From a virus, in the IMG/VR virus record IMGVR_UViG_3300028920_000004, positions 31,765 to 95,764 of that record: a DNA stretch of 64,000 nucleotides. One strand, 5' to 3'. Both the position numbers and the translations under genes were made by a program. This document shows positions 31,329 to 61,261 of this stretch, piece after piece. Each line of letters starts with the position of its first letter. Position 1 is the first letter of the stretch. The notes below the pieces were generated by a model. The model saw only the letters and a list, made by a program, of their open reading frames with translations. It did no database searches and was not told where the DNA came from.

Positions 31329-31922
31329 CTAACTTTGTACTAATCCTGATAATGAAAGCACTATAGCATCTGCGGTATCATTTTCAGAAATCTTTAATTC
31401 AAGACTTAATGCTTTATTTACATATTCCACAATTTCTTTTTTCAGTTGATGAGATTTCAGTTTCTTTTTAGATTTTTTAAACTTTACTTTTGCCCTCGCA
31501 GATGTAGGATTTATTAATGTAGCATTATTGGCTATCCTTTTTAATCTATCATAAGTTAATATGCCATTGTAAGATAATAATTTAGTAGTAAATACAGAAA
31601 AACCATAAAAACAATCCTCTATTTTAACAAAATCAAATTTATATTCTTGAGATAATTCGTCTTTAAATCTATCTAATTGCTCGGTAAAAAGGTCAACATT
31701 ATCTAAAGCTTTTTTAGTTTTGCTTTTTGATTTACGAGGAATATTAGGAACTGTTATTTTATGGGTTTTTTCTAATATTACATAAGAAGAAGTAGTTTTT
31801 ATTATAGCAAAAGCAGTATGATAAGTAGCGGTATCTGCCCCTATACTTGTTTTATTAGAATGTAACTTTACCCCAAGAAATTTCTCAACCGATTTTTTAC
31901 TTACTTTTTTTATATATTTCAT
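31329..31922 (-). CDS. RuvC-like Holliday junction resolvase
   Basis: IGADTA..TAFAII, KIED, P...R, NDTADAI. Confidence 0.8.
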   Translation of the reverse strand: MKYIKKVSKKSVEKFLGVKLHSNKTSIGADTATYHTAFAIIKTTSSYVILEKTHKITVPNIPRKSKSKTKKALDNVDLFTEQLDRFKDELSQEYKFDFVKIEDCFYGFSVFTTKLLSYNGILTYDRLKRIANNATLINPTSARAKVKFKKSKKKLKSHQLKKEIVEYVNKALSLELKISENDTADAIVLSLSGLVQS

Positions 31923-33931
31923 TTCTTTTTATTTCCTTTTTTAGGTTTTTCATCTTCATCCAATTCATCAACTCGTACAAACTCTTTGGTTTCCCATATA
32001 TATTTACAAGGAATTTCAAAATTTTTAATTCTTCTTTTAGCATCTCTAATTTTATCTATCACAAATTTCCCATATTCTCCTTTACTATCTTCTTCATAAA
32101 TATATCTTACAGCAAAAGAAGGAAATTGAGTTATCAAATCTTTAGCTAACCATTGACCATTATCTCTTAATTGTACAAAGACTATTAATATGGATTGTTT
32201 ATCTCTTGCTTTATCATTCAAATGTTTAAGAATTTTATCAAATTCCGCATAACTATGAGGACATACCCAATCTAGAATAGTAATAGAATTTTTTTCTATT
32301 TCTACGTCATAAGGGTCAGAAGTTTCGTGATAGAAAAAATCTCCTTCCTTCAATCCTAACTGTAAGCTTGTCTTAGCCCATCTAGACCCTCCCTCAAGTG
32401 AAAGATAATAAGGTTTTATTTTTTGATTAACTAATCTTTTTATAATATTAATACTAATAGAAGTCTTACCTACTCCTGGTGAGGCTCCTATTAATATTAA
32501 ATCTCCTTTGTGAAAATTCATCAAATCATTAAAATATGGCATTTTAAAATCTATAGGAATACCTACATCAATAAGTTTTTCTTTCCATTCTATTTTATTT
32601 CTTAATTTATAAGTTCTTCCTTTTTTTAATACTTTCTGTTCCTTTATAAGATATTTTAAAGTCTTAACTACTCTTTTATTATCTTCTCCTCTATCAGTTC
32701 CTACCACAGAATTAGAAATTTCTCTCCTTCCTGCTTCATCTACATCTCTTAAATAACTCAAAACCTCGTCAGCTAAAGCTTCTTCATCGAATTCTATATA
32801 CTTATCTATCTCTCTAATCATAGCATTAATATCTTTACTTGGCATAGGGTCTTCAAGAAGATGTTTATTTAATACATGCAAAGCATAAGAAGTTTGGTTA
32901 AGATTTAATTGTTTCCTTAAAATCCCTCCTAATTTAATAAAAGAATTATTACAAATACCTTCAAGATTATTATTTTTCAATTTTAGAGGTTCAGAAAAAT
33001 TCTCAGTTTTAATTTCTTCTTTTAAAGTCTCATCTACAGATTTTTTATTTTTTCTTCCAGTTTTTTTAATTATAAAATCTTTTAATTTGGTAGGCATATT
33101 TACTGGAGGAATTAAAGAAGTAAACTTTCTTTCACTATTTGGTAATTTAGAAGGTGGAATTAAACAATAACCGCCATCATTTTCTATATCTATATGAATA
33201 TTTTCTATATCAAAATATGTTTTTGGAATATCTTTTTCATATTTAAAAAATAACTGATACCCTCCCAAATTCTCCATTTTTAAAGTTTTTTTATTTCCTA
33301 TAAAAGGTTTTAAAATGTCATCTACTTTTTTCTCAAGTGCTTCTTTTCTTTTTAAAATTTCTTCCTTTCTTTTTTCATCCGCAAGCCCTTCCCTTATTTC
33401 TTTTTTCTCCTGTTTGGTAAGTATATCTACATCTATTACAGTAATATTACTTATTTTTCCAGATTTAACTCCAATATTCAAATCATTATTTATCCATTCT
33501 TTCCATTCTGATAGTTTTTTATGTGAAGCTTTAGTCCAATTTTTTTCTACTGGAACCTTAGATTCTTTAGCAATAGGAACCAAATCAAATTTATTCATAT
33601 TATAAAAATCTAATAATTTATCTAAAACTTTATCATCTTGTTTGGTATTAATTTTTATTTTAAGTTTTTCCTTAATATCTTGGTAAACTTCCTCGTCAGA
33701 AACTTTTTTATAATTCTCTAATTTCCTAGCTACTTGTAAAAGATTATATTTCTTTTTACAATTCCAACATTGAAAGAAATGTCTATTTGGAAGAAGTATA
33801 GATGCAGAAGGTTTTTCTTCCTTACAAAATGGACATACAAACATATAAGTTTTGCCCATTTTCTTAACTTTTATATCTTGATATTTTAAATATTCTAACA
33901 AATGTTTAGAAATTACTGTTCTATAATTCAC
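31919..33931 (-). CDS. Zn-finger / PrimPol primase / P-loop helicase fusion
   Basis: CPFC...CWNC; NIGVKSG..VIDVD..GGYQLFF..GGYCLIPPS; Walker A GASPGVGKTS. Start reassigned to GTG at 33931 (GGAG at 33937-33940) because the track start lies inside the tRNA. Confidence 0.88.
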   Translation of the reverse strand: MNYRTVISKHLLEYLKYQDIKVKKMGKTYMFVCPFCKEEKPSASILLPNRHFFQCWNCKKKYNLLQVARKLENYKKVSDEEVYQDIKEKLKIKINTKQDDKVLDKLLDFYNMNKFDLVPIAKESKVPVEKNWTKASHKKLSEWKEWINNDLNIGVKSGKISNITVIDVDILTKQEKKEIREGLADEKRKEEILKRKEALEKKVDDILKPFIGNKKTLKMENLGGYQLFFKYEKDIPKTYFDIENIHIDIENDGGYCLIPPSKLPNSERKFTSLIPPVNMPTKLKDFIIKKTGRKNKKSVDETLKEEIKTENFSEPLKLKNNNLEGICNNSFIKLGGILRKQLNLNQTSYALHVLNKHLLEDPMPSKDINAMIREIDKYIEFDEEALADEVLSYLRDVDEAGRREISNSVVGTDRGEDNKRVVKTLKYLIKEQKVLKKGRTYKLRNKIEWKEKLIDVGIPIDFKMPYFNDLMNFHKGDLILIGASPGVGKTSISINIIKRLVNQKIKPYYLSLEGGSRWAKTSLQLGLKEGDFFYHETSDPYDVEIEKNSITILDWVCPHSYAEFDKILKHLNDKARDKQSILIVFVQLRDNGQWLAKDLITQFPSFAVRYIYEEDSKGEYGKFVIDKIRDAKRRIKNFEIPCKYIWETKEFVRVDELDEDEKPKKGNKKK

Positions 33932-33951: not shown

Positions 33952-34025
33952 TGGATGCCAAGGTAGGAATCAAACCTACAATGCCAGGCTCAAAACCTGA
34001 AGTGTTATCATTACACTACTTGGCA
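33952..34025 (-). tRNA. tRNA-Gln (UUG) with encoded CCA
   Basis: TGCCAAG-TA-GTGT-AATGATA-ACAC-T-TCAGG-TT(TTG)AG-CCTGG-CATT-GTAGG-TTTGATT-CCTAC-CTTGGCA-T-CCA; full cloverleaf, U1-A72. Confidence 0.92.
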
Positions 34026-34029
34026 ATAA

Positions 34030-34137
34030 TTATACTTTTCTCTTCTTATGTCTATGTTTTCTTCTTCTCTTCCTAAATTTATGCCTTTTTACTTTTCGTC
34101 TATGGGCATTTCTATTTCCTACACTGCCTTTAGCCAT
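34030..34137 (-). CDS. 35-aa basic protein resembling ribosomal protein bS22 (AURKAIP1/COX24 domain)
   Basis: MAKGSVGNRNAHRRKVKRHKFRKRRRKHRHKKRKV*; AAGGA upstream; ends 4 nt before the tRNA. Confidence 0.7.
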   Translation of the reverse strand: MAKGSVGNRNAHRRKVKRHKFRKRRRKHRHKKRKV

Positions 34138-34224
34138 AATTAATCCTTATTTTATGTTTCTTGCTTCCTTAGTAACAGAACCATTCCATCCTATTCTAAC
34201 TTTGTAAACTTTTCTATCTTCATC

Positions 34225-34416
34225 TTATTTCCCTGCTAAGGTTTTACCATATTCACTACCTACCTCAAATCCTTTTTGGAATTCTTTAGTTCCCTTTTCA
34301 ATCATTTCTATTCGGTGTTGAAATTTAACATTGTCTACAAATTGGATGCAAATTCCAGATGCTAATATCATTCCAACAAATACTCCAGATAACATACCTA
34401 TCATAAATTTGTGCAC
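34225..34416 (-). CDS. Small single-TM protein
   Basis: Hydrophobic N-terminus; AGGAG upstream. Confidence 0.55.
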   Translation of the reverse strand: MHKFMIGMLSGVFVGMILASGICIQFVDNVKFQHRIEMIEKGTKEFQKGFEVGSEYGKTLAGK

Positions 34417-34428
34417 TTCTTTTCTCCT

Positions 34429-34647
34429 TTATTTTATGGTGTCCACAAAAAATCCATATTTCTGACCATCTTCATTTGTAATCACCATTTCATATCCATT
34501 AAGAAATTTACCAGTTCCTTCACATGCTTTACAAGTGTAAGTACCTTCTGAAGAAGATAACCATCCTTCTCCATAACAATTTCTACATTTAATATAGTTA
34601 GGGATAATATTTACTGTTTTAATTTTCTTTTTTTCCATGATTTTCAT
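34429..34647 (-). CDS. DnaJ-type zinc-finger small protein
   Basis: CRNCYGEG...CKACEGTG. Confidence 0.7.
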   Translation of the reverse strand: MKIMEKKKIKTVNIIPNYIKCRNCYGEGWLSSSEGTYTCKACEGTGKFLNGYEMVITNEDGQKYGFFVDTIK

Positions 34648-35080
34648 CCCACCAATTATTTACATATTTAATTTTTAAAATTAAATATAAAACTAAAGTT
34701 GCTATTATAGCTACCCAATAACTTCCTATACCTACTAACAATCCTGTAGAAACCATAACCCAAAGTAAACTGGCTGTAGTTATACCTTCTACTTTATTTT
34801 TTTTACTTATAATCACTCCCGAACCAAGAAAACCTATAGAGGCTATAACATAGGCAAATATTCTACCAATATCAAATCTAATTATATTTTTATCAACTCC
34901 CAATTCTGAAATTATTCTAAGAATTTCAAAAACTAAAACCGAAAATAAAGTTGCTCCTACTGTAACCAAAATTATATCCCTAAGTCCAGCAGGTTTGTCT
35001 TGATGCTCTCTTTCAAATCCTACTATTGCTCCTAAAACCACAGATAACAAAATTCTTAAAATATATATCATTAACATCAT
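34619..35080 (-). CDS. mgtC: MgtC/SapB family membrane protein
   Basis: GAIVGFERE..KPAGLR, D..R, IGFLGSG, GITTA..LW. Confidence 0.9.
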   Translation of the reverse strand: MMLMIYILRILLSVVLGAIVGFEREHQDKPAGLRDIILVTVGATLFSVLVFEILRIISELGVDKNIIRFDIGRIFAYVIASIGFLGSGVIISKKNKVEGITTASLLWVMVSTGLLVGIGSYWVAIIATLVLYLILKIKYVNNWWDENHGKKEN

Positions 35081-35089
35081 ATCACTTCC

Positions 35090-36157
35090 TTAGAGTTTAG
35101 ATTTGAGCCTTTTATCTATAAGTAATTGAGTAATCAAATCTACCGCAGATTCTACATCCTTTTCATTTATTATCTCTACTGGAGAGTGCATATTTCTTAA
35201 AGGTATTCCTATATCTAAAACTCTTACCCCATCATTAGTATGAGAAACCATACCTGCATTTGTGCCATAACTATTAGTAGCTATTATTTGATAAGGAATT
35301 TTCTTCTTATCGGCTATAGAAAGTAATAAATTATTTACTGGTCTATATATATTTATACCTTTCATTATAGCACTTCCTTCTCCTAATATACATCTTCCAG
35401 AATCTCTTTCGTCCACATTAGGATAATCTGTAGCATGAATAACATCTACTCCTATAAATAAATCGGGGGTTTCTCTTCTAACCACTTCTCTTGAACCGAA
35501 ACATCCAATTTCTTCTTGTGCTGAAAATATAAATTTTATAGTAGGTAGATTTCTATGTCTGGACGCTATTAATTTTTGTATAACTTTTATCAATGTAAAA
35601 CAACCAATCTTATCATCAAATCCAGAACCTACAAAATTTCCTTCATAAAGTTCTTCAAAACTAGGTTTTAGAATTATAGGGTCTCCTATAGATAACATTT
35701 CTAAAACTTGTTTTCTATTTCTAATTCCTATATCTAAGACTAAATCTGAAGTCTTGCTTGGAAAATCTTCATCTCCTTCCATAAGGTGAATAGGTTTAGC
35801 GTCTACTACACCATTAATTATCCCATTTTCAGTCAATACTAAAGCATTTCTAGCCCTTATTAATTGAATATCATGCCCTCCAATTTGATTAACCGATATA
35901 AATCCGTATTTATTTACATTGGTTACTAAAAATCCTAATTGGTCAGCATGAGCATCTACTATTACAGTTTTTGAAGGTTTTTTTAAGGCTGGAATAGAAA
36001 TTACCAAATTGTTATGGTAATCTATTTCCAAAGTAACAGTAGAAGGTAATATTTTTACTAATTTGTCTCTAATATGATATACCAAAGTTTGCTCAAATCC
36101 ACTCGGAGAAGGTATCTCTATCAAAGATTTTAATAGCTTGGTATCTACTTTATTCAT
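35090..36157 (-). CDS. M42-family (TET-like) aminopeptidase
   Basis: PSPSGFE, DAHADQLG, FDDKIG, QEEIG, DV, PLRNMHSPVE. Confidence 0.9.
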   Translation of the reverse strand: MNKVDTKLLKSLIEIPSPSGFEQTLVYHIRDKLVKILPSTVTLEIDYHNNLVISIPALKKPSKTVIVDAHADQLGFLVTNVNKYGFISVNQIGGHDIQLIRARNALVLTENGIINGVVDAKPIHLMEGDEDFPSKTSDLVLDIGIRNRKQVLEMLSIGDPIILKPSFEELYEGNFVGSGFDDKIGCFTLIKVIQKLIASRHRNLPTIKFIFSAQEEIGCFGSREVVRRETPDLFIGVDVIHATDYPNVDERDSGRCILGEGSAIMKGINIYRPVNNLLLSIADKKKIPYQIIATNSYGTNAGMVSHTNDGVRVLDIGIPLRNMHSPVEIINEKDVESAVDLITQLLIDKRLKSKL

Positions 36158-39927: not shown

Positions 39928-42087
39928 CTATCCTTTTATTACTCCAAGAGGTTCAAGCTCTACTAAAATTTTTACTAAATCTTTTTGATTTTCCATTACT
40001 ATGTCTATATCTTTATACGCAGAAGACGCTTCATCGAGGTCTTTCTTATTTCTTATAGAATGTATAATTCCTTTATTATCTAATCTTTTCTTTTCCTCTT
40101 CAAGATTTAAATTTTCTCTTGCTTTTGTTCTACTCATAGTTCTCCCTGCTCCATGAGAACAAGACATAAAACTTTCAGGATTTCCCAATCCTTCAATTAT
40201 ATAACTTTTAGTTCCTTGAGAACCTGGAATTATTCCTATCTGTCCTTTTCTGGCAGAAGTAGCACCTTTTCTATGTACCATTACATTATGTCCGAAGTGA
40301 TTTTCCATAGTTGCATAATTATGTGCTATGTTTATCATTTCATCAAAACTATCTATAAATTCATTATAACAAAGTCCATTTACATTATTTTTTGTAATTA
40401 TCTCCAAAAAAGAGCCTTTTATTCTCTCCATCATCAACTTCCTATTAGCTAAAGCAAAATCTACACAATAATTCATTTCTCTCAAATAGTCTTGTCCTTC
40501 TTTACTATCTAAAGGAAGAAAAGCCAAATCCCATTTAGGGTCTATTTTTGTATGCCATTTCTTATTAAGTTCTTTCGCTATTTCGTTGTAATGTCTTGCT
40601 ACTTTATATCCTAAATTTCTACTTCCGCTATGAAGCATTATCCAAATATGTCCATCAGAACCTTTCTGTATCTCTATGAAATGATTTCCTCCTCCAAGAG
40701 TGCCTAATTGTTTACGAGCAGAATCAAATTCTTTGCCTACAATAGAATTTCTAAAATTTAAATTAACAGTTGGCATAAGTATACCATCTTGTTTTCTCTT
40801 GTGATGACTAAATCCTACTGGAACTACGCTTCTAATTCCACCTTTATATTCTTTCGAACCTCCGAAAATTTTCTTTATTTGTTCTGGTGTAATATCTGTT
40901 AAGGACGTTTTTACAGCACACATACCACAATTTCCTGTAACAAATATTTTTCCATTTCTTCTTGCAATAAAATATCCAGTTTCAACAACAAAACAATATT
41001 TTTTAGCATTAGGGATTTTTATTTCTTTTGGTTTAGTAAATCCAACATATTTATTGTTAGTTTGATATACATTATACCAATCCTTCCAATTTTCGTTTTT
41101 GCTTGAATATTGATGTATATTTGCACGAATACCATTTATTGCACAAATATATTGAATAACATCTGCATTTGTTTTATTTGTTGTAGAATATACTTTATGA
41201 TTTCTTTTTTCATCAATACAACCATCCCAATGTAAATATTCATCAAAAACTATTTTTGCTTGATGTTGATTACATTTATATAAATTAATTAAACTTTTTT
41301 CACACTTCCAATCTAATGTAAAAATTATAGATACTATTCCATCCGAATTTTTATATTCAACAAAATCAACATTAGCATTTTTTAATAAAAATTTACTTCG
41401 ATTTATTTTTCTTTGTTTTTTCAAATGTAATTCAACAGAAGAACTATCTTTATTAGATTGTCTTATACAACCATCTGCTGAAACCATAATCATAATAGCT
41501 AATTGATTATCAGTCAAATCAATTCCCTTTTCATTAGTTGGAAAAGTAGTTCTAACAGAATAATAATCTCGTTTTTTTATTTTTAATAATTTTTCTTTAA
41601 AATCTCTACAAAAATAAGTATTATTTTTTTTGTTTTTACCATATCCTTCATATACTAACATCCTGTGTTCATCGCTTAAAACTTGGTCTAATCCATATTT
41701 ACTTTTATATTCTGTAAATTGTTCACAAGGTTTTACAATATACAACAAAGGGTTACTAAAAAAAGAAGTTTGATTATAATTATCCCACACCAACACCTTT
41801 TGGTTATTATATTTATCTATTGTAATCCATCCAACTTCAGTTAATATTTCTGTATCTTTATCAACAGCTCCAATATCTACCCCTACTGCATTTGGTATTA
41901 CAACTCCTTTAGTAGCTAAAACTCCACCAATAGGCATACCATAACCTTGATGGCTATCGGGCATTATTGCTATATGCTTAAAAGTAAAAGGAAGATTAGC
42001 TAAATTTTTAGCCTGTTCTAATGCTCCTTCTTCAATATTATTGAGCCATAATTTTATAGGTTTATTTTCACTATTTATTACTTTCAT
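39928..42087 (-). CDS. rtcB: RtcB RNA ligase interrupted by an intein
   Basis: MPDSHQGYGMPIGG, VGVDIG/CGM, GTLGGGNHFIE, HSGSR, HN, HRKGA, PGSQG, SHGAGR, DEASSAYK. Confidence 0.95.
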   Translation of the reverse strand: MKVINSENKPIKLWLNNIEEGALEQAKNLANLPFTFKHIAIMPDSHQGYGMPIGGVLATKGVVIPNAVGVDIGAVDKDTEILTEVGWITIDKYNNQKVLVWDNYNQTSFFSNPLLYIVKPCEQFTEYKSKYGLDQVLSDEHRMLVYEGYGKNKKNNTYFCRDFKEKLLKIKKRDYYSVRTTFPTNEKGIDLTDNQLAIMIMVSADGCIRQSNKDSSSVELHLKKQRKINRSKFLLKNANVDFVEYKNSDGIVSIIFTLDWKCEKSLINLYKCNQHQAKIVFDEYLHWDGCIDEKRNHKVYSTTNKTNADVIQYICAINGIRANIHQYSSKNENWKDWYNVYQTNNKYVGFTKPKEIKIPNAKKYCFVVETGYFIARRNGKIFVTGNCGMCAVKTSLTDITPEQIKKIFGGSKEYKGGIRSVVPVGFSHHKRKQDGILMPTVNLNFRNSIVGKEFDSARKQLGTLGGGNHFIEIQKGSDGHIWIMLHSGSRNLGYKVARHYNEIAKELNKKWHTKIDPKWDLAFLPLDSKEGQDYLREMNYCVDFALANRKLMMERIKGSFLEIITKNNVNGLCYNEFIDSFDEMINIAHNYATMENHFGHNVMVHRKGATSARKGQIGIIPGSQGTKSYIIEGLGNPESFMSCSHGAGRTMSRTKARENLNLEEEKKRLDNKGIIHSIRNKKDLDEASSAYKDIDIVMENQKDLVKILVELEPLGVIKG
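40930..41868 (-). mobile_element. 313-aa intein with LAGLIDADG homing endonuclease; Ala1 start (class-3-like)
   Basis: Inserted in VGVDIG|CGM; begins AVDKDTEILT, ends KYCFVVETGYFIARRNGKIFVTGN; LAGLIDADG blocks IMVSADGCI and YLHWDGCI. Confidence 0.92.
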
Positions 42088-60537: not shown

Positions 60538-61261
60538 TACTTGAATAAATAACCATAAAATTTATAAATATATCTAGAAAAAAATATCCCTAAATATATG
60601 CTTAAACTATATCATAGAAGCAATAAAGGAAGAATGTATTACTAATAATAAGTATATAATTATGGAGTAATTAAAGATAAGGGAAAAAGAAAAAAACGAT
60701 TTTCACTTAATAGATATTGAAAAATCCTACTTTGTATATGGCTTTTTGATATAATAGGGTATTATAGTAGCATAGACTTTCAATCATAGCAACCACTTAC
60801 GATAGAATAGGCCAGGGGTTTATTTTAGCGTAAAGTATATATAAGTATAAATATACTACTACTATCTCCTATTAACACCCCTATAAAAAGCCTTGAACCC
60901 TATGCGAAATGCCTTGTAGCGGAACTTTTTTACTCTTTTTAGGGTATTTTAAGCATATTTAAGCCTTTTTTAAGATTAATGGGGGATTTATAGATATTAC
61001 CATAAAAATGTCCTATAGGGGTTACTATTAGCAAATATAGGGTATATAAGAAAGGGTTTAAGGCTTATTTTTTAAGGGTAAGAGATAAGAGGTAAATTAT
61101 AGTTTATTACTATTATAGTAGTAATTAATAATTGGGAGATTTATCAGAATTAGTGATAATATTATCACTGTAAGTGATATGAGGTTCGACCCGATATTTT
61201 CGGTGTCGTAAGGCGGTAAATTGGTGGTAAAGTTAAGAATAAAATAGGGTGATTTTTACTA

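Follow-up and report, generated by a model that had tools for sequence, protein, structure and literature searches.

Can a bacteriophage encode bS22, a small protein of the bacterial small ribosomal subunit? The question is raised by an open reading frame (ORF) of 35 codons in the window analyzed here, a stretch of 64,000 nucleotides that corresponds to bases 31765-95764 of a phage record in IMG/VR. The initial annotation of this DNA had read the frame as a hidden phage gene for a peptide of the bS22/mS38 type. In the bacterial ribosome, bS22 has been seen by cryo-EM between h44 and h45, where it touches the 50S subunit (PMC7797042; bioRxiv 10.1101/2023.04.16.537070). The pocket that it occupies is made of h2, h27, h44 and h45 of 16S rRNA together with H68 and H70 of 23S rRNA, beside the decoding centre (PMC7797042, bioRxiv 10.1101/2023.04.16.537070), and is structurally conserved among bacteria (bioRxiv 10.1101/2023.04.16.537070). 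In M. smegmatis the protein is dispensable yet shapes the h44 aminoglycoside site (bioRxiv 10.1101/2023.03.31.535098). Virus-encoded ribosomal proteins are typically small and exchangeable, and are thought to replace the host copy (PMC6375957). The survey of Mizuno et al. 2019 (PMC6375957), which reports bS21, bL9, bL12, bL31, bL33, bS6, uS9, uS15 and HPF among others, makes no mention of bS22, and a literature search found no paper pairing bS22 with a phage gene.

The micro-gene and its genomic setting

The record that hosts the micro-gene is a complete IMG/VR phage; it is 95,764 bp long, carries direct terminal repeats of 115 bp and has a GC content of 27.9%. Its hallmark genes, identified with Pfam and PHROGs, are PolB, a UvsX-like RecA and a primase-helicase. 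The micro-gene lies inside this bona fide viral genome and not in host flank, with phage replication genes on both sides. The stretch is present in one DNA sequencing run, from a marine sediment metagenome that is its probable source; no RNA run is listed.

The micro-gene occupies window positions 34030-34137 on the minus strand, from an ATG start to a TAA stop contained in these coordinates. A Shine-Dalgarno (SD)-like AAGGA (34144-34148, minus) stands 6 nt before the ATG (34137-34135). The frame and its exact peptide appear in the ORF listing, and the SD in the sequence, as the initial annotation had described them. Such SD-like motifs precede 94 of the 123 long ORFs of the phage (76%), against a background of 11%. 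The translated peptide contains K, R or H at 22 of its 35 residues and no D or E; in the AlphaFold2 prediction, residues 9-29 form a helix, with a mean pLDDT of 81. It agrees with the general features of bS22 (about 28-40 residues, pI above 12, a bent alpha-helix), a set that discriminates weakly. Gene callers missed the micro-gene, and the window peptide used as a single query gave no match with phmmer in 1.84 billion representative proteins or in the PDB, in a PHROGs search, or with tblastn in 50,697 GenBank phages.

All genes around the micro-gene are co-directional, in the order M42 peptidase, MgtC, a 72-aa zinc-ribbon protein, a 63-aa protein, the micro-ORF, a tRNA and the primase-helicase; the same block also encodes RecA/UvsX, PolB and an intein-containing RtcB. 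Upstream, the 63-aa gene (34225-34416, minus), to which no function is assigned, is separated from the micro-gene by a spacer of 87 nt (34138-34224, minus). Promoter-like sites in this spacer are no commoner than in shuffled sequences, with no convincing sigma-70 promoter, and a search of it for terminator-like sites found none. Downstream, a tRNA-Gln(UUG) (33952-34025, minus; ARAGORN; Rfam tRNA, 57.3 bits) begins 4 nt past the TAA stop, which bears out the claimed position directly upstream of a tRNA, and the two are probably co-transcribed. The primase-helicase follows (31919-33850, minus), with Prim-Pol, CHC2 zinc finger and DnaB-like domains according to Pfam and PHROGs. The tRNA alone was found above threshold in the Rfam scan; a sub-threshold match to IRE_I on the opposite strand (34154-34184, E 0.09) was taken as chance.

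Several further features of the block were observed. The genes for the MgtC-family membrane protein and the M42 aminopeptidase lie just upstream of the micro-gene (34619-36157, minus), and MgtC homologues recur among related phages. The RtcB gene (39928-42087, minus) carries a LAGLIDADG intein. Inteins or homing endonuclease domains are also found inside the primase-helicase of the primase homologues P0004, P0043, P0069, P0077 and P0110, and none is found in the primase of the window phage.

Relatives in related phages

The family of the window phage was collected by means of the adjacent primase. Single primase or RecA queries found no relatives in IMG/VR; 170 primase homologues were gathered, and an alignment of primases (A1) did find relatives and led to 47 IMG/VR loci. 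These loci were screened for small basic ORFs, and a profile search of 44 related records followed. One homologue of the micro-gene, L076:473-577, was found by the screen and again by the profile search, and a second, L092:1498-1614, by the profile search. The primases of the two phages that bear them are about 50% identical to that of the window phage. Both homologues are preceded by SD-like sites, AAAGGAG in L092 and AAAGGGA in L076. The exact sequences of all three phage peptides are absent from a collection of 15 billion proteins. Strict phage-type motif scans of viral contigs found no member beyond L076 and L092; a first strict motif scan of metagenomes gave no matches, and the matches of a second were judged to be chance.

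The window peptide is 59% identical to that of L092 and 48% identical to that of L076, and the matches include non-basic positions (K-G-x-V-G-x-R-N-x-H and F/Y21). Smith-Waterman scores against 5000 composition-preserving shuffles gave z 9.7 for window-L092 and z 5.7 for window-L076, and 0 of 5000 shuffles reached either score. For the three pairs of peptides, dN/dS is 0.16, 0.42 and 0.62, values that come from very small samples with dS near saturation; the lowest belongs to window and L092, which use different codons at 7 of 20 identical residues. Because homologues exist, shuffles fail to reach the real scores and many of the codon changes are synonymous, these sequence comparisons identify the frame as a real gene selected at the protein level and exclude a chance ORF.

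The gene is carried by 3 of about 45 related phage records; of the 6 others whose assigned completeness is 90% or more, 1 has it. From this sporadic occurrence it follows that the gene is accessory and dispensable for the phage family. Its surroundings also vary. The L092 homologue is next to a 278-aa ORF and a homologue of a 174-aa gene of the window, and the neighbours in the L076 genome are ClpP-like and trypsin-like proteases. No tRNA was found near either homologue, and adjacency to a tRNA is specific to the window genome and not conserved. The initial proposal that bS22 and the tRNA form a translation-tuning unit therefore receives no support from synteny.

Relationship of the phage peptides to bS22

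The profile check for DUF1713/COX24_C, taken on its own, goes against the annotation. Pfam PF08213 (COX24_C), whose cut-off is 23 bits, scores the window peptide at 10.9 bits (E 0.45) over positions 9-31 of the 33 in the profile, and the NCBIfam model NF047430 (bS22) gives no match to it. These two models also fail on genomes of Bacteroidota, whose bS22 is proven by cryo-EM (PMC7797042). The profile test is therefore too narrow, and passing it is sufficient but not necessary.

Comparison with solved structures and with a broader set of bacterial peptides gave a different result. When 177,635 distinct PDB sequences were searched with a profile built from the three phage peptides, only two matches resulted, and both are bS22: Borrelia 8FMW chain V (E 0.3) and F. 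johnsoniae 7JIL chain 5 (E 0.43). These matches are weak in themselves; their alignments are gapless over 24-26 residues. As a comparison set, bS22 peptides of the PF08213 type from Verrucomicrobiota were used, with 21 unique sequences aligned as A5. This alignment is anchored to solved bS22/mS38 chains (7JIL, E 2.5e-5, and 9I5V, 6XYW, 9EVS, 8CRX, the 5O5J group and 8FMW). Aligned to A5 with hhalign, the phage alignment A3 gave a probability of 90.5% and E 1.3e-6 over 28 columns. The real score of 27.1 compares with 12.0 +/- 2.6 (maximum 20.8) after column shuffling, and was reached by 0 of 400 shuffles.

The A5 HMM was also applied to the single peptides. The window peptide scored 12.0 bits against -8.5 +/- 3.5 for its shuffles, none of 3000 reaching the real value, and the L076 peptide scored 18.6 bits, likewise with 0/3000. 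The L092 peptide was weak at -1.6 bits, a score reached by 127/3000 shuffles. When all 2309 six-frame frames of the phage were searched with A5, the micro-ORF ranked top (E 0.031); the second-best match, a 22-residue frame at 60652-60717 that has no start codon, was taken as chance. The L076 peptide was the sole match in its own genome (E 0.0014). In absolute terms, every E-value of the window peptide itself is marginal (0.03-0.45). The similarity is order-specific, since shuffled columns and shuffled peptides fail to reach the real scores.

The residues that agree can be placed individually. In a joint alignment (A6), H19, K23, R29 and H30 are invariant across the phage, Verrucomicrobiota and Bacteroidota sequences, and the residue spacing that the initial annotation gave for the family proves essentially right. 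A6 is almost gapless from residue 9 to residue 33, and two histidines 11 residues apart are kept within [KR]-H-K-x-[KR]-K-[KR]-x-[KR]-x-x-R-H-K-K. Over 29 residues the L076 peptide shows a gapless match of about 55% identity to one Verrucomicrobiota bS22, in which the non-basic N-L and N positions also agree, and the heptad R-R-R-L-M-R-H is common to L092 and Verrucomicrobiota L146. The window peptide forms the link between those of L092 and L076. The N-terminal third is diverged, with G-N-R-N-A-H where bS22 has K-K-K-R-R. Among the 30 nearest clusters in the ESM Atlas, 21 are in the COX24_C family set, the top matches being 31-32 aa long; these neighbours and the AlphaFold2 helix are weak but consistent indications of kinship with bS22.

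From these comparisons of sequence, the three phage peptides probably form a divergent branch within the bS22 family. Since the peptides are short and biased in composition, convergence on a helix made of Lys, Arg and His keeps a residual likelihood. The PDB profile matches, hhalign and the HMM shuffles, all of them order-specific, thus support the initial reading that the phage frame is an overlooked gene whose product resembles bS22/mS38.

Named members of the family show how far the likeness extends. Verrucomicrobiota bS22 (PF08213-type, 28-33 aa) resembles the phage peptides in size, charge and helix, and G-S-[VI]...K-H-K-x-[RK]-K-R-x-[RK]-x-x-R-H-K-K is a sequence frame found in both. As a difference, the peptides of the window and L092 are 4-5 residues longer at the N-terminus or have two residues inserted behind G-S-V. 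The bS22 proteins of Borrelia burgdorferi (8FMW_V) and Flavobacterium johnsoniae (7JIL_5) share H-K-x-K-K-[KR]-x-R-x-N-R-H-K-K with the phage peptides, and the closest known proteins also include that of Porphyromonas gingivalis (9I5V). Bacteroidota bS22 starts with M-P-[SC]-G and has T before the first His, whereas the phage forms have R-H-[KRW]-[FY]. Mycobacterial and Cutibacterium bS22 (NF047430; the 5O5J group and 8CRX) and mitochondrial mS38 (AURKAIP1/COX24) belong to the same superfamily, linked through A5. The mS38 protein is much longer than the phage peptide, and homology is limited to its C-terminus.

Distribution of bS22 in bacteria and the host

Genes for PF08213-type bS22 of 28-33 aa were found in 37 of 61 sampled Verrucomicrobiota genomes (including L138-L166 and L043), and some of them appear to start at non-ATG codons. 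The peptides of alignment A5 were drawn from these genes. The bS22 chains in the PDB come from Borrelia, Actinomycetota and Bacteroidota. With bS22 so widespread, the hint to the host that the initial annotation drew from its presence is weak. The heavy use of SD sites by the phage suggests that the host is probably not a member of the Bacteroidota. The bS22 loci of Verrucomicrobiota have a GC content of 45-71%, which indicates that the Verrucomicrobiota sampled are not the host. Inference of the host through the M42 peptidase was uninformative, as none of its bacterial relatives exceeds 34% identity and they come from many different phyla. The A5 profile detected no bS22 in the single genomes of Altimarinota, Omnitrophota, Thermotogae, Anaerolineaceae and an unclassified lineage.

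Bacteroidota-type bS22 (M-P-[SC]-G-...-T-H-K-R-K-K-R-L-R-K-N-R-H-K-K), as observed in genomes G001, G002 and G050-G109 and at loci L115, L118 and L125, was undetected by both PF08213 and NF047430. Pipelines relying on these two models will therefore miss it. At L125, the gene lies between HU-like and RNase E/G-like genes and looks like host flank in a contig classed as viral.

bS22-like genes on other viral contigs

A general motif scan found bS22-like genes on two further viral contigs, which belong to unrelated phages. The first, IMGVR_UViG_3300022538_000539 (G175), is a phage of 115 kb, 99% complete by CheckV estimate and with a local GC content of 22%. Its gene (G175:C1:72214-72300, minus, in locus L177, G175:C1:66000-79000) encodes a canonical PF08213-type peptide of 31 aa that scores 26.2 bits to A5 (E 1.8e-6), and is accompanied by genes for a DnaB-like helicase, an HNH endonuclease and DNA methyltransferases. 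The second is a frame on the 131-kb contig IMGVR_UViG_3300028837_002886 (L172:5647-5687, minus), which adjoins dUTPase and transglycosylase. It reads ...K-T-H-K-L-K-K-R-R-R-R-D-R-H-K-K..., with an AAAGGAG SD and no ATG, GTG or TTG start, and probably starts at ATT or ATA. Both contigs resemble the window in placing a tiny bS22-like ORF in a context of phage replication or nucleotide metabolism, and the window clade is the most diverged of these bS22-like peptides. A further open frame of 65 residues (I-Y-S-L-L-C-H-R-F-R-K-R-R-R-L-L-R-H...; L129, L133-L137) is identical in six large viral or metagenome contigs of 130-340 kb; it is probably an off-frame reading of a conserved giant-virus element and unrelated to bS22.

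The protein bS22 is not among the ribosomal proteins reported for viruses, and the window holds an unusually diverged member of a kind that is unpublished but recurs. Like the virus-encoded ribosomal proteins already known, phage bS22 is small, probably exchangeable and under purifying selection. Unlike theirs, its gene is too small for routine gene calling.

Proposed function and alternative explanations

The explanation favoured here, which is considered probable though far from assured, is that the ORF is a functional gene for a peptide descended from bS22 that acts at the bS22 pocket of the host ribosome. The 35-residue, helix-forming and extremely basic peptide would descend from the bacterial small-subunit protein (bS22/mS38 COX24_C family). 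Its micro-gene, placed in the block for replication and host takeover, would probably be expressed early and on one transcript with tRNA-Gln. The solved structures of bS22 suggest that the peptide would insert into the rRNA pocket of host ribosomes formed by h2/h27/h44/h45 and H68/H70, where it may take the place of the host bS22 or occupy a pocket that is otherwise empty, depending on the host. By analogy with the bacterial protein, we infer that it would bind ribosomes and affect translation. The effect may be that ribosomes are adjusted or stabilised during infection.

The strongest competitor, itself unlikely, is a general nucleic-acid-binding basic peptide, such as a protamine-like DNA condenser, a packaged charge neutraliser or an RNA chaperone. 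Such a peptide could have converged on a bS22-like sequence, or could derive from bS22 and work off the ribosome. Its basic composition, free of acidic residues, would suit this role, as would the failure to pass the curated bS22 models and the diverged N-terminal part. The similarity to bS22, however, depends on the order of residues, beyond composition, and bS22 alone was matched in a PDB that is rich in basic peptides (protamines, eL41, bL34 and histone tails). The position of the gene in the replication/early block, and not among structural genes, also argues against it.

Two other explanations keep the peptide on the ribosome or its RNA. In the first, which is improbable, phage bS22 would be one element of a programme to protect or rebuild the 16S rRNA 3' minor domain during infection, or would be a subunit added to the ribosomes of a host that has no bS22. 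As an h44-h45 clamp it might shield or re-stabilise the site attacked by nucleases of the decoding centre and the 3' end (colicin E3-type, MazF-type), working together with the RtcB ligase, the kinase/phosphoesterase genes and the tRNA of the phage; the link to these RNA-repair genes is speculative. In the second, whose probability is slightly lower again, the peptide would be a weapon, a mimic that occupies the bS22 pocket or subunit interface and so inhibits or reprogrammes host translation (host shut-off). The same homology evidence would serve this explanation as serves the favoured one, and the greater length and different N-terminus of the phage forms, as well as the contacts of bS22 with both subunits (PMC7797042; 10.1101/2023.04.16.537070), would fit it. 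Nothing speaks specifically in its favour, the phage depends on the same ribosomes, and the ribosomal proteins that viruses are known to encode have been read as replacements (PMC6375957).

It is very unlikely that the frame is a regulatory leader, in which the act of translation controls the processing or expression of tRNA-Gln and primase and the product is irrelevant. The closeness of the stop codon to the tRNA, 4 nt ahead of it, and the lack of a terminator or clear promoter between the two would allow such control; the amino-acid sequence, however, is under purifying selection in two phages that have other neighbours and no following tRNA. The weakest alternative, a non-gene frame that is open by chance in intergenic DNA rich in purines and in A+T, has a negligible likelihood: K/R-rich frames arise easily on the purine-rich coding strand of a genome with 28% GC, gene callers passed over the ORF and its exact sequence is absent from the protein collection, yet the SD, two homologues, 0/5000 shuffles, synonymous substitutions and 35 codons free of acidic residues stand against this reading, which the codon comparison (dN/dS) and the pairwise shuffle scores effectively refute.

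Significance

The gene described here escapes both gene callers and the curated models of bS22, and a simple motif scan was enough to find genes resembling bS22 in at least three phage lineages that are unrelated to one another. It can be expected from this that viral as well as bacterial bS22 is probably much commoner than annotated. Its presence in Verrucomicrobiota extends the known range of the protein, which had comprised Actinomycetota, Bacteroidota and Borrelia. The diverged forms in phages reveal the positions that this minimal ribosomal protein cannot do without. Because bS22 sits at the subunit interface by the decoding centre, a copy carried by a phage suggests that the virus directly tunes the small subunit at its most sensitive part.
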